Source: an archaeon (lineage in GTDB: Archaea; Thermoproteota; Nitrososphaeria; Nitrososphaerales; Gagatemarchaeaceae). From it: a stretch of 64,000 nucleotides of DNA. This document shows positions 5,387 through 52,129 of this stretch, piece after piece (within the stretch, counting starts at the first letter, position 1; each line of letters begins with the position of its first letter). The notes under the pieces were generated by a model. It did no database searches and had not been told where the DNA came from. It worked only from the letters and a program-made list of their open reading frames with translations. The stretch is from positions 10,981-74,980 of the forward strand of contig JAKAUC010000007.1 in NCBI GenBank assembly GCA_021827865.1, read 5' to 3'. The position numbers and the translations under genes were made by a program.

Positions 5387-5517
5387 TGGGGGTAGTCGGA
5401 TTTGAACCGACGGTCTACAGGTTTCTTAGGCAGCTCCAATGTCAAGTCATCCACGTTTCCGTGTCAGCCATTGGTGTCACTGGAGCCTGTCGCCCTGCCT
5501 GGCTGGGCTATACCCCC
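5387..5517 (-). tRNA. tRNA-Trp(CCA) with a 57-nt intron (about 5423-5479) carrying a K-turn / box C'-D'-like element
   Basis: Hand fold. GGGGGTA/TACCCCC, D arm GCCC-AGCCAGGCA-GGGC, anticodon stem ACAGG/CCTGT, loop CTCCAG|intron|A, T arm GTCGG-TTCAAAT-CCGAC. The intron contains CUGA-CACG-GAAA-CGUG-GAUGA and UUGGAGC, which is antisense to the anticodon loop. Confidence 0.85.
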
Positions 5518-17950: not shown

Positions 17951-18907
17951 ATGGGCGGATGTTCGGGCTGCGGAGGGAAGCCCTTCTACACAAGACGCTA
18001 CTCCGGCGAGGTACTTTGCGTCTCATGCTTCAACGACTCCATCGTGGAGAAGACCCGCAGGACCGTCTCGAAGTACAAGATGATACGGCCGCGGGAGAAG
18101 GTAGCGGTCGCTGTCTCTGGTGGAAAGGACAGCCTTTCGCTGCTCAAGGTGCTGACAGGGCTCTACGCGCCGAAGAGGAACAGCATGGTGGCGGTCTCGG
18201 TGGACGAGGGGGTCGCCGGGTACAGGGACGAGGCACTGTCGCACGCCCATTCCCTTGCGAATGAGCTCGGCGTCGAGCACTTGGTCGTCTCATACAAGGA
18301 GATGCTCGGGTTCTCGCTGGATGAAGCCCTGGACTGGAAGGGCGAGCGCGAAGCGTCCTCCTGCAGCTTCTGCGGGGTCTTCAGGCGAAGGGCCATCGAT
18401 GTGGCTGCGCTCAAGGTCGGGGCGTCGGTGGTGGCTACGGCCCACAACCTCGACGACTTCGTCCAGACGTTCATGATGAACCTCATGCACGGCGACGTCA
18501 CCCGACTCGGATGGCTCGATCCAAACCACTCGGACGGCTCGTTCTCCGTAAGGAGGGTCAAACCCTTCATGGAGCTGTACGAGGAGGAGGTCGCCCTCTA
18601 CGCCCACCAGGTGGGTGTCCCATTGCAGAGCGTGAGCTGCCCCTACATGCACGAAGGGCTCAGGAGTGAGGTCAGGGACTACCTCAACATGATGGAGGCG
18701 AATCACCCGGGGCTCAAGAACGTCATGCTGCGCAGCGGCCTCGACGTGATCTCCCACTACTCAGGCTCTCGGGAAAGGCAATCCGTTCCCTGCGCACAGT
18801 GCGGGAAGCCCTCGTCCAGCGGCCTTTGCGGCGTATGCAGGATGAAGGCGGCAGTGGAGGAACACGTTAAAAGCCGCGCTCAACCAACGGCGTTCGGCGG
18901 TGGGTAG
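17951..18907 (+). CDS. PP-loop ATPase, tRNA 2-thiolation protein (TtuA/NcsA family)
   Basis: N-terminal CSGCG...CVSCF, SGGKDS PP-loop, C-terminal CAQCG...CGVCR. The ATG at 17951 is used because the track extension to 17531 is antisense to the S2P gene. Confidence 0.8.
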   Translation: MGGCSGCGGKPFYTRRYSGEVLCVSCFNDSIVEKTRRTVSKYKMIRPREKVAVAVSGGKDSLSLLKVLTGLYAPKRNSMVAVSVDEGVAGYRDEALSHAHSLANELGVEHLVVSYKEMLGFSLDEALDWKGEREASSCSFCGVFRRRAIDVAALKVGASVVATAHNLDDFVQTFMMNLMHGDVTRLGWLDPNHSDGSFSVRRVKPFMELYEEEVALYAHQVGVPLQSVSCPYMHEGLRSEVRDYLNMMEANHPGLKNVMLRSGLDVISHYSGSRERQSVPCAQCGKPSSSGLCGVCRMKAAVEEHVKSRAQPTAFGGG

Positions 18908-19216
18908 GGCCGGGATGGTAGCCGTATCCCAGAGTGCTGAAACCGGCTTCATGCAGCGGCCAGCAACCCTCGGGTAAAGCCATCTTCCCCGTCACCCGCG
19001 CCGGGCTGGGGAGACGAACTCACGCCGGGGTGGGCGGTCATGAGGGGCAGCCCTCTCGAAGGAGAGGGCCTGACTCTTGATTGCCGAACCGGGCGAGATC
19101 CGGGAGGGAGCAGCCCTATGGCGACGTGGCCACGCTGCCTCGTCTACGTGGGGGATCCCTGGCCCGACGAGATGGGGGCGGAGAGTGATGGTGAGCTCCG
19201 GGGGATCTACCGCCGC
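18896..19216 (+). ncRNA. ffs: Signal recognition particle RNA (archaeal 7S/SRP RNA), about 320 nt
   Basis: The 5' GGCGGTGGGTAGGGCC pairs with the 3' ...CTACCGCC. The conserved helix-8-like block GATCCGGGAGGGAGCAGCC resembles the CCCGGAAGGGAGCA I recall from methanogen SRP RNA. A T-run follows (cacgttttt). Confidence 0.65.
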
Positions 19217-19254: not shown

Positions 19255-19392
19255 GCAGGGGTAGCCTAGAGTCCTGGACGGGGAGCCTGGTAAGGCGCAG
19301 CCAGATGGGCGCAAGCTTGCTAAGCCTGTGTCTCTAACGGGACTCGTGGGTTCGAATCCCGCCTAAGGCGGGCGATAGTCCCACCCCCTGCG
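19255..19392 (+). tRNA. tRNA-Ser(GCU), class II, interrupted by three introns (D-loop about 19270-19285, anticodon stem 29/30 about 19301-19314, T-arm about 19358-19379)
   Basis: Hand fold. Acceptor GCAGGGG/CCCCTGC with discriminator G. After removing 16+14+22 nt the arms are as follows: D arm GCCT-AGCCTGGTA-AGGC; anticodon arm CAGGC-TTGCTAA-GCCTG; long variable arm TGTCTCTAACGGGACTC; T arm GTGGG-TTCGAAT-CCCAC. The mature length is 86 nt. Confidence 0.65.
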
Positions 19393-19464: not shown

Positions 19465-20742
19465 TCAGCCCAGCTCTCGTCCCGCGTACCCGGCCTTCGA
19501 CCTCAACTCTTCCTCGATCCGCAGTAGCTCGTTGTACTTCGCCACCCTCTCGCCCCTCGCGGGAGCACCCGTCTTGATGAAGTCCGCCCCGAAAGCAGTC
19601 GCCAGGTGCGCTATGAACGGGTCTTCGGTCTCCCCTGACCGGTGTGAGACCACGGGGGTCCACCCCGCCGCGCGGGCAAGGCCGATGGCATCCTCGGTCT
19701 CGGACACTGTGCCTATCTGGTTCAGCTTGATCAGGACGGCATTGGTTGCCTTCTTCTCGATGCCCAACTTTATCCTCGCAACGTTGGTCACATAGATGTC
19801 GTCCCCGATGACTTTGGTGCTGCGTCCCAGTCTCTTCGTGATCGATGCGAAGTCGTCGAAGGCCTCCTCATGGAAGGGGTCCTCAATGGTGAGCAGGCCG
19901 AACTCGTCCCTCAGCCGGGCGTAGTGGTCTTCGAGGGCTTCACCGCTCATCGCATGGCCGTCCAGCGTGTACCTTCCGCTCTTCTCGTCATAGAATGTGG
20001 AAGCTGCAGCGTCAATGCCCAGCTTGACCTCCTTCTCGCTGTAGCCGGAGGCTGAAACGGCTTTGCGGATGGACCCCAGGGCTTCGCGTGTAAGCCTGAA
20101 CGGGGGGGCGAAGCCGCCTTCGTCGCCTACATTGATGGCCCCCCTGCCATGCTCCGACACGAGGATCGCCTTCAGGGAGTGGTAGACCTCCGACCCCATC
20201 CTGATCGCCTCAGCGCACGACGACGCCCCCACCGGTTCGATGAGGAACTCCTGCACAGCCAGGTCGTTGCCTGCGTGCTCCCCGCCGTTGATCACGTTCA
20301 TCATGGGCACGGGGAGAATGTACCGGCCTGACTTCCTCAGCTGGACGAAGAGGCTCACTCCATTCGAGTTGGCGGCTGCCTTCGCCGAAGCCATGGAGAC
20401 GGCAAGTATCGCGTTGGCTCCCAGCTTGCTCTTGTCCGGAGTGCCGTCCAACGAAATCATCTTGTGGTCCAGGCGCCGCTGGTCGTCGACGCGAAGACCC
20501 ACGACGCCGCGGCGGAGCGCGCCTCTGACGTTGCCCACCGCCTTCGCCACGCCCATCCCATGGAACCTCTCCCCCCCGTCTCTGAGCTCGAGCGCTTCGT
20601 GCCTCCCCTTCGACGCCCCAGAGGGGACGCTCGCCCTCCCCATGGCGCGGCCTGACTCAACCTCGGCCTCGACGGTGGGGTTTCCGCGCGAATCTAGGAC
20701 CTGCCTCGCCCTGACGTCCAGGATGTTTGTCTTGACTGCCAT
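19465..20742 (-). CDS. eno: Enolase (phosphopyruvate hydratase)
   Basis: ILDSRGNPTVE...SGASKGRHEALELRD...IKLNQIGTVSET...SHRSGETED. Confidence 0.95.
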   Translation of the reverse strand: MAVKTNILDVRARQVLDSRGNPTVEAEVESGRAMGRASVPSGASKGRHEALELRDGGERFHGMGVAKAVGNVRGALRRGVVGLRVDDQRRLDHKMISLDGTPDKSKLGANAILAVSMASAKAAANSNGVSLFVQLRKSGRYILPVPMMNVINGGEHAGNDLAVQEFLIEPVGASSCAEAIRMGSEVYHSLKAILVSEHGRGAINVGDEGGFAPPFRLTREALGSIRKAVSASGYSEKEVKLGIDAAASTFYDEKSGRYTLDGHAMSGEALEDHYARLRDEFGLLTIEDPFHEEAFDDFASITKRLGRSTKVIGDDIYVTNVARIKLGIEKKATNAVLIKLNQIGTVSETEDAIGLARAAGWTPVVSHRSGETEDPFIAHLATAFGADFIKTGAPARGERVAKYNELLRIEEELRSKAGYAGRELG

Positions 20743-50998: not shown

Positions 50999-52129
50999 TT
51001 AGCCTCGTATCTCCTTCAGGACCCGCCCGTAGGCGTACCAAGCATCCTTGGGTCCTGCCTTCTCGTCGATGAGCCCGAAGTGGTTCTCCTGAGGAGGGAA
51101 AGACGTCCAGGAGGTGTCCAGGTACCGCCATATGCCGATCCCAATCACCCCGTCGAGCGAGTGAGCCTCCTTCAGCGCCTGGCACACGTAGTCGGCCTGC
51201 TTCTCCTTGCTGTAGCCTAGCGCAGACGGCCCGCTGGGGTATCCTGTCTCTGCTATCATGACAGGCTTCTCGGCAACCCGGGCGAAGTCGCGCGCCCTCC
51301 TCACCACCGAAGCGTCGACGGGCTCCGACGACTTGTAGTTGGGATAGAAGTCGAGGCCCAGGACGTCGCAGAACTTCGCGTACTCGGCGACGTCGAGCCT
51401 CCCTTCGTCGGCCTCGAGGTTCACCATGGTAGACGCTCTCGGGTCCTCCAAGTGCACGGCATCGTTCAGCGTCCTGAGGAGGGCATCCCTGAATCCACTC
51501 CCTTCCAGCCAGGATGCGCCCGAGCGCCATCCTCCGGCCTCATGCATCGCCCACCAGTCCGGCTCGTTCTCTATCTGCCAGGTACTGATGTCCCCCCTGT
51601 AGTGCCTAACCAAGAGCCTGGCGTGCAGCTGCGCCCTCTTCAGGTACTCGTCTGGCCCCGCGTCAGGGCTCAGCCCCGCCGGGAGGAACCTGCTATAGCC
51701 ACAGGCGAGGACCGGGAGGACGGATATCCCCTGCGCCTTCAGCGCCTTCACCAAGCCGTCCATCGGCCACTTCTCATACCCTGCATCTAGCGTCGAGCCC
51801 AGGGTGCCGAGAGGGAGAGGGACCGGCTCGAAGAACCTCCAGGGGAACCAGCATCTGACGAAGTCGGCCCCGATCGACTTCAAGCTATCCGCGAGGGCTA
51901 GAGACGCTCTGTCGGCCTCGTCCTGAGGGATTGGCTGGTGGTGCAGAGCGATGGTCGCCTCCTCCGTCCTCTCGAACCCACCCCTCTCCCTCAGGCTCAG
52001 GGAGAGCAGGTGCGGGAAAATGATCGACTTCGGCTCCTGGGCGCCGGCGTACCTCCAGGGGTCGTCCAAGTTTATCCCGAAAGAGAACCTCCGATCTGGG
52101 CCCATGGCGGCGACTCGCGGCCACTTCAC
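50999..52129 (-). CDS. Clan GH-A (TIM-barrel) glycoside hydrolase
   Basis: WQIENEPDWW (NEP acid/base) and IAETGYPS (nucleophile Glu) have the spacing typical of GH-A. The family is unresolved. Confidence 0.6.
   Translation of the reverse strand: MKWPRVAAMGPDRRFSFGINLDDPWRYAGAQEPKSIIFPHLLSLSLRERGGFERTEEATIALHHQPIPQDEADRASLALADSLKSIGADFVRCWFPWRFFEPVPLPLGTLGSTLDAGYEKWPMDGLVKALKAQGISVLPVLACGYSRFLPAGLSPDAGPDEYLKRAQLHARLLVRHYRGDISTWQIENEPDWWAMHEAGGWRSGASWLEGSGFRDALLRTLNDAVHLEDPRASTMVNLEADEGRLDVAEYAKFCDVLGLDFYPNYKSSEPVDASVVRRARDFARVAEKPVMIAETGYPSGPSALGYSKEKQADYVCQALKEAHSLDGVIGIGIWRYLDTSWTSFPPQENHFGLIDEKAGPKDAWYAYGRVLKEIRG

Follow-up and report, generated by a model that had tools for sequence, protein, structure and literature searches.

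A probable three-intron tRNA-Ser(GCU) gene in Nitrososphaerota, with intron polymorphism among its orthologues

Transfer RNA genes with up to three introns are established in archaea and are commonest in Thermoproteales (PMC4033280, PMC3218864, PMC8450103). In that order (Pyrobaculum, Thermofilum, Caldivirga), the work of Sugahara et al. 2007/2008, to the extent that it is relayed in PMC4033280, PMC3218864, and PMC8450103, describes up to 3 short non-canonical introns per gene, located at D-arm, anticodon-stem, and T-loop sites, held in strict or relaxed bulge-helix-bulge (BHB) motifs, and subject to fast turnover. According to the tRNAscan-SE 2.0 paper, tRNA genes with multiple non-canonical introns also occur in some Crenarchaeota and Thaumarchaeota; the program has a separate thaumarchaeal BHB model, and 107 non-canonical introns were found in the thaumarchaeal genomes analysed (PMC8450103). 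The splicing endonuclease EndA assigned to Thaumarchaeota is of the (alpha-beta)2 type (PMC4090602, PMC5829648), and the relaxed motifs hBH, HBh', and BHL require an (alpha-beta)2 or epsilon2 enzyme (PMC4090602, PMC5829648, PMC4033280). In a related TACK lineage, Candidatus Caldiarchaeum subterraneum (Aigarchaeota), three multi-intron tRNAs coexist with a heterotetrameric EndA (PMC3082918), and the split and permuted tRNA genes of Nanoarchaeum, Caldivirga, and Thermofilum depend on the same BHB and EndA machinery (PMC3218864).

Here we describe a tRNA-Ser(GCU) locus that resembles the Thermoproteales genes in the number, kind, and sites of its introns, in the mixture of strict and relaxed motifs, and in intron turnover. 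The locus lies in a window of 64 kb, by which we mean the whole stretch of DNA analysed. Its structural kind is already known; what it adds is the intron polymorphism across relatives and the presence of introns in all four tRNA genes of the window. Unlike the Thermoproteales, the host belongs to Nitrososphaerota and apparently comes from mesophilic soil or peat, not from a hyperthermophilic setting, and here, unlike in the cases described there, close relatives differ in the introns of a single orthologous gene, so that gain and loss are visible. The Thaumarchaeota with comparable genes (Cenarchaeum and others; PMC8450103) share with our host the phylum, the kind of intron, and the presumed (alpha-beta)2 EndA (PMC4090602, PMC5829648). 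The multi-intron tRNAs of Caldiarchaeum subterraneum are different ones, namely Leu-UAA, Gln-CUG, and Thr-GGU (PMC3082918). Unlike split or permuted genes, the four exons described here are collinear and contiguous in one gene, and neither trans-splicing nor permutation is needed. In the literature examined we found no explicit account of this Ser(GCU) gene or of any thaumarchaeal tRNA with three introns, and such an account may exist.

The host lineage was assigned from the neighbouring enolase gene, whose product is 100% identical to an NCBI protein labelled 'MAG: Nitrososphaerota archaeon' that is found on 16 contigs of up to 319 kb. All close enolase matches with a named source were Nitrososphaerota or Nitrososphaerales, and the syntenic loci were from Nitrososphaerales MAGs of peat and soil studies; the sample names suggest that the lineage is apparently mesophilic. 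Nitrososphaerota is the thaumarchaeal phylum of the kingdom Thermoproteati (TACK). The original prediction had supposed a host with Thermoplasmata-like metabolism and had regarded the triple introns as notable on that ground. Neither part is borne out, since the enolase and the syntenic loci all point to Nitrososphaerota or Nitrososphaerales, and multiple non-canonical tRNA introns are already documented for Thaumarchaeota (PMC8450103, PMC4090602, PMC5829648).

The locus consists of four exons alternating with three inserts in the order GCAGGGGTAGCCTAG-AGTCCTGGACGGGGAG-CCTGGTAAGGCGCAG-CCAGATGGGCGCAA-GCTTGCTAAGCCTGTGTCTCTAACGGGACTCGTGGGTTCGAA-TCCCGCCTAAGGCGGGCGATAG-TCCCACCCCCTGCG, with the following features.

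19255-19392, + strand: tRNA-Ser(GCU) locus, 138 nt, beginning GCAGGGG and ending CCCCTGC followed by G
19255..19269, + strand: exon 1, tRNA positions 1-15 (acceptor 5' strand, U8, A9, D-stem 5' strand, A14, G15)
19270..19285, + strand: intron 1, 16 nt, position 15/16 in the D-loop, motif HBh' (relaxed)
19286..19300, + strand: exon 2, positions 16-29 (remaining D-loop, D-stem 3' strand, G26, C27-G29)
19301..19314, + strand: intron 2, 14 nt, position 29/30 in the anticodon stem, motif hBH/BHL (relaxed)
19315..19356, + strand: exon 3, positions 30-59 (remaining anticodon arm with anticodon GCU, then long variable arm, T-stem 5' strand, and T-loop U54-A59)
19357..19378, + strand: intron 3, 22 nt, position 59/60 in the T-loop, motif hBHBh' (strict)
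19379..19392, + strand: exon 4, positions 60-73 (U60, T-stem 3' strand, acceptor 3' strand, discriminator G73)

Excision of AGTCCTGGACGGGGAG (16 nt), CCAGATGGGCGCAA (14 nt), and the 22-nt T-loop insert leaves 86 nt, which ARAGORN calls as tRNA-Ser(gct) with a canonical cloverleaf. In the spliced form, the acceptor, D, and T stems comprise 7, 4, and 5 bp, respectively. The features of a class II tRNA-Ser are present, namely the anticodon GCU, G73, and a long variable arm, whose 5-bp stem (GUCUC/GGGAC) closes a loop of 4 nt. The CCA is absent from the gene sequence after G73. The three inserts of 16, 14, and 22 nt had been placed correctly by the original prediction (15/16 in the D-loop, 29/30 in the anticodon stem, and the T-arm), and its 86-nt class II tRNA-Ser(GCU) with G73 and canonical arms agrees with the ARAGORN call.

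Standard detectors were silent on the unspliced gene. ARAGORN, which had been proposed as a check on the prediction, returned no tRNA from the 138-nt locus in the default mode or with the intron option (-i), and recognized the gene only in its spliced sequence; the Rfam tRNA model gave no match to the unspliced locus (251-nt region) at the gathering score or at E<=10. Near-matches of the Rfam models sX4, snoR125, and tmRNA over the locus scored far below their gathering scores and are due to chance or to the T-arm only. We attribute the silence to the three introns and not to a missing gene. The Rfam tRNA score (RF00005) falls as introns are added: two intronless orthologues (L162 and L157, with 3 and 4 differences from the spliced window sequence) scored 63.8 and 59.2 bits, one-intron forms 43-53 bits, and the two-intron L001 38.3 bits, while the two-intron L084 and the three-intron window gene were below threshold.

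To compare orthologues we parsed 114 complete tRNA-Ser(GCU) genes, of which 95 were unique. Ten loci were derived by synteny, with the enolase protein as the guide and no use of the tRNA sequence. A scan of a genome collection with enolase gave, among the matches listed, mostly bacterial loci, with only L001-L006 being relevant (L006 has the enolase without an adjacent tRNA-Ser), and closer relatives came from exact-protein look-ups. A pattern scan of metagenomes, allowing 0-30 nt at each of the first two intron sites, provided 103 further loci, in which the search pattern itself dictated 38 exon bases, so that exon conservation is informative only in the synteny-derived loci and in the unconstrained 48 bases.

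In the 10 synteny-derived loci, where enolase is 66-85% identical to that of the window, the 86 exon positions show 0-2 differences from the window (exon 1 is the same in 10/10), compared to an identity of 64-100% for introns 1 and 2, 44-68% for intron 3 where present, and 62-89% for the 45-nt upstream flank. Intron 3 is missing in L001, L002, L004, and L084, and measures 17 to 43 nt in the others. At each of the three sites, a unique orthologue (n = 95) has the insert or lacks it precisely, and all eight combinations were found; written as presence (1) or absence (0) of introns 1, 2, and 3, the counts are 000 in 2, 001 in 2, 010 in 6, 011 in 2, 100 in 1, 101 in 2, 110 in 49, and 111 in 31. 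Acceptor pairs covary (3:70 is A-U, G-C, or C-G; 5:68 is G-C or A-U), and G73 is found in 114/114 genes. Since the orthologues hold the exons while the inserts vary or vanish, the locus is a real feature far beyond chance; this comparison of sequences shows the exons to be under purifying selection and suggests that gain and loss of each Ser(GCU) intron are still segregating among close relatives.

The surroundings of the gene are also shared by the relatives. The neighbouring features are as follows.

18898-19212, same strand as the tRNA: archaeal SRP (7S) RNA gene, Rfam 118 bits
19222..19228, + strand: TATA-like box TTTTTAA, centred ~30 nt upstream of the tRNA 5' end
19465-20742, - strand, opposite to the tRNA: enolase gene, its 3' end 72 nt from the tRNA

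The SRP RNA gene ends 42 nt before the tRNA starts, and the gene order enolase, tRNA-Ser, SRP RNA, TtuA-like gene is kept in the syntenic loci. In all relatives checked (L001-L005, L084, L093, L149, L157), the SRP RNA stands directly upstream of tRNA-Ser(GCU) on the same strand. Between these two genes every syntenic locus has a TTTTTAA, TTTTTAT, or TTTTAAA box at the equivalent site, which suggests that TTTTTAA is a probable archaeal promoter element.

These comparisons bear on two alternative readings of the locus. A decaying tRNA pseudogene with accumulated insertions could account for the failure of the standard tools to call a tRNA, the more so if another Ser(GCU) gene lies outside the 64-kb window analysed. 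We regard this as very improbable, because such a gene would hardly keep its exons at 0-2 differences among relatives whose enolases are only 66-85% identical, its acceptor-stem changes are compensatory, the SRP RNA adjacency and the TATA-like box are both conserved, and the inserts sit in well-formed splicing motifs and not at random sites. An assembly or chimera artefact, conceivable for a source that is evidently a metagenome assembly, has next to no probability: 31 unique sequences have the three-intron layout, and they derive from numerous assemblies and samples that are independent of one another (NCBI, ENA, JGI); this recurrence excludes it. A functional tRNA-Ser(GCU) gene with three introns is, on the evidence of sequence and with its splicing inferred, very probably what occupies positions 19255-19392. 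The three non-canonical introns originally proposed are upheld by the ARAGORN call of the spliced sequence, the junction motifs, and the presence or absence of each insert in the 95 unique orthologues.

To locate the splice junctions we listed all intron placements that leave the mature sequence unchanged and scored them for a BHB motif, defined by a 4-bp central helix (H) between two bulges of 3 nt in which the cut follows the second base. The best registers were 15/16, 29/30, and 59/60 in every orthologue. A check of the junctions for such motifs had been suggested with the prediction; the outcome was positive and strict at 59/60 and positive but relaxed at 29/30, whereas 15/16 has HBh' only. 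The three motifs use non-overlapping sequence and can therefore coexist, with no set order of splicing needed.

Intron 3 has the complete motif. The T stem GUGGG/CCCAC provides the outer helix h (5 bp), the bulges AA|U and AG|U have 3 nt each, and the inner helix h' is CCCGCC/GGCGGG (6 bp) closed by the loop UAA; the terminal hairpin is thus CCCGCC-TAA-GGCGGG, with a loop of 3 nt and not the TAAG first described. Helix H (UUCG/CGAU) consists of 3 bp and a U.U mismatch in the window and of 4 bp in 34/36 unique relatives, the intron strand H' being CGAA, CGGA, or CGAG as the complement of UUCG, and a T-loop with UCCG goes with CGGA. All 36 unique versions, 17-52 nt in length, are cut at A59|U60, and the first three h' pairs are formed in 35/36 with several pair types. 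The intron is missing in 58/95 unique orthologues, including L084 (enolase 85% identical). Precursor folding placed its motif within 0.6 kcal/mol of the minimum free energy. The earlier placement at 19358-19379 is compatible with the sequence, but the register of the motif is 19357-19378, one base 5'.

A separate observation concerns the T-loop itself, in which position 55 is C, and not the near-universal U (GGGUCCGAAU), in 7/95 unique tRNA-Ser orthologues (L002, L088, L094, L157, L172, and others). In those C55 genes that have the 59/60 intron, its strand of the central helix reads CGGA, which leaves the helix fully paired.

For intron 2, the 4 bp of helix H are formed by GCGC/GCGC, the 3' bulge AA|G measures 3 nt, and the outer helix is the 7-bp UGGUAAG/CUUGCUA, built from the D-arm 3' strand and the anticodon stem-loop. 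Both helices, H of 4 bp and h of 7 bp, are retained in 58/58 unique versions, the H' strand being GCGC or GCGU in all of them. The inner helix h' is weak (0-3 bp), with the consequence that the 5' cut falls two bases into the loop. When the 138-nt precursor was folded without constraints, the intron 2 motif came to within 0.1 kcal/mol of the minimum free energy, and the outer helices of introns 2 and 3 form with a probability of 0.8-1.0. Precise absence of intron 2 was seen in 7/95 unique orthologues.

Intron 1 is the least certain of the three. In the window, helix H (GCCU/GGGG) of this intron has 3 bp, its remaining position being a G.G mismatch. The 5' bulge reads AG|A, the inner helix h' (GUC/GAC) has 3 bp, and the exons form no outer helix (h). 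Folding of the 138-nt precursor left the motif outside the predicted minimum-energy structure, with a pair probability of 0.00 and a cost of +8.6 kcal/mol when it was forced, since the intron pairs preferentially with the variable-arm strand GGGACUC. The incomplete central helix, the lacking outer helix, and this zero thermodynamic probability would suit an arrangement in which EndA removes the 29/30 and 59/60 inserts only and the 16-nt D-loop insert is retained or removed otherwise. We judge this unlikely. Retention would produce a 25-nt D-loop, which would disturb the contacts of G18-G19 with the T-loop. The main arguments for an intron are that 12/95 unique orthologues lack the insert exactly at this junction and that its ends are conserved: among 51 unique versions of 15-20 nt with variable interiors, the first base is A in 48, the final AG is kept in all 51, and the ending GGGN-AG (H' being GGGN) in 50. 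Helix H reaches 4 bp in 14/51 versions, those with H' GGGC or GGGU, and the three h' pairs are present in 51, 44, and 36 of the 51, with the supporting changes GUCA/UGGC and GUCU/AGAC. Furthermore, HBh' is an accepted class of (alpha-beta)2 substrate (PMC4090602, PMC4033280). We retain three introns, the chief remaining doubt being whether intron 1 splices by the same route as introns 2 and 3.

Expression of the gene would begin with transcription from the TTTTTAA box or with read-through from the SRP RNA gene. EndA would then cut two bases into each bulge of the 138-nt precursor, and an RNA ligase would join the four exons into the 86-nt class II tRNA with G73. The mature tRNA would be charged by seryl-tRNA synthetase through its long variable arm and G73 and would read AGY serine codons. 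The host EndA is presumed, by analogy with the literature on the phylum, to be a broad-specificity (alpha-beta)2 enzyme; a phmmer search with an approximate M. jannaschii EndA query, which is a weak test, gave no match when run against ORFs from all six frames of the window and of ~0.8 Mb of related loci. The finding leaves the known mechanism of splicing unchanged.

The termini of the 59/60 introns repeat the adjacent tRNA sequence. Of the 36 unique versions, 28 open with TCCC and 13 with TCCCAC, which repeats the beginning of exon 4, while the 3' ends resemble the T-stem 5' strand GUGGG followed by CGAA. Many of these introns (L095, L138, L143, L152, L171, L176, L186, and others) were seen to open with an exact copy of the tRNA 3' end, TCCCACCCCC, and introns of the same set (L095, L138, L143, etc.) to finish in GGGUGGG-CGAA. 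With such a start and such an end, the precursor holds two tandem T-arm-like units, and as the T-loop UUCGAA is palindromic, a partial T-arm duplication would yield a bulge-helix-bulge automatically. The termini may thus reflect a local duplication around the palindromic UUCGAA, as their sequences suggest, and could equally have converged under the constraint of a symmetric motif.

Introns are not confined to the Ser(GCU) gene. All 4 tRNA genes in the 64-kb window carry them, six introns in total, and the other three genes are listed below.

2846-2953, - strand: tRNA-Pro(UGG), 108 nt, interrupted by a 32-nt intron at the canonical position 37/38 or directly adjacent to it
5387-5517, - strand: tRNA-Trp(CCA), with a 57-nt intron in the anticodon loop
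20835-20925, + strand: tRNA-Val(UAC), with a 16-nt non-canonical intron at 44/45

The Pro(UGG) gene was located by a T-arm and acceptor scan, with which ARAGORN -i agrees, and plain ARAGORN calls the 76-nt spliced form; the unspliced gene at 2846-2953 was not called by default ARAGORN, nor by Rfam even at E<=1. The Val(UAC) intron has the motif GGCG-AA|A...CGCC-AG|G with a perfect 4-bp H, and its removal gives a normal 75-nt tRNA, so the ARAGORN drawing of a 91-nt tRNA with a long variable loop was rejected in favour of a 44/45 intron. In most relatives this intron has 16-17 nt and a variable interior, and the L171 orthologue is precisely intronless. An ARAGORN -i survey of intron frequency in related loci was discarded as unreliable, having mis-assigned many loci (for example, with 28 'tRNA-Ala(cgc)' calls) and sampled one neighbourhood. 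Tentatively, the peat and soil Nitrososphaerales might form a second hotspot of tRNA introns, independent of Thermoproteales, with the 59/60 intron derived from a partial tandem duplication of the T-arm and 3' end; we regard this combined proposal as possible but doubtful.

Annotation that is not aware of introns would leave the genome seemingly without tRNA-Ser(GCU), on which alone the reading of AGY serine codons depends, and the Pro(UGG) gene at 2846-2953, overlooked by both default tools, carries a similar risk. Overlooked tRNA genes would skew inferences of completeness and codon usage for the MAG. The 95 orthologues, with all intron combinations on essentially identical exons, constitute an unusually clean natural series in which intron gain, intron loss, and the continued fit of introns to the splicing endonuclease can be studied, and they come from an apparently mesophilic lineage outside the well-studied Thermoproteales.

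Some minor observations were made on the window and its relatives. A SAM riboswitch model matched positions 51799-51912 (+) at 25.7 bits (gathering score 44.4; E = 0.2), probably by chance. The tRNA-Trp(CCA) intron holds GAUGA and CUGA elements, which we take to recall the box C/D guide RNA within euryarchaeal tRNA-Trp introns. Some tRNA-Val orthologues show UCCGAAU, and in the tRNA-Val region of L154 ARAGORN gives a truncated 80-nt Val(UAC) with the extra anticodon-stem sequence GTCAGGCCAAGCCCGTTAAGCCC, which may be an additional or differently placed intron.
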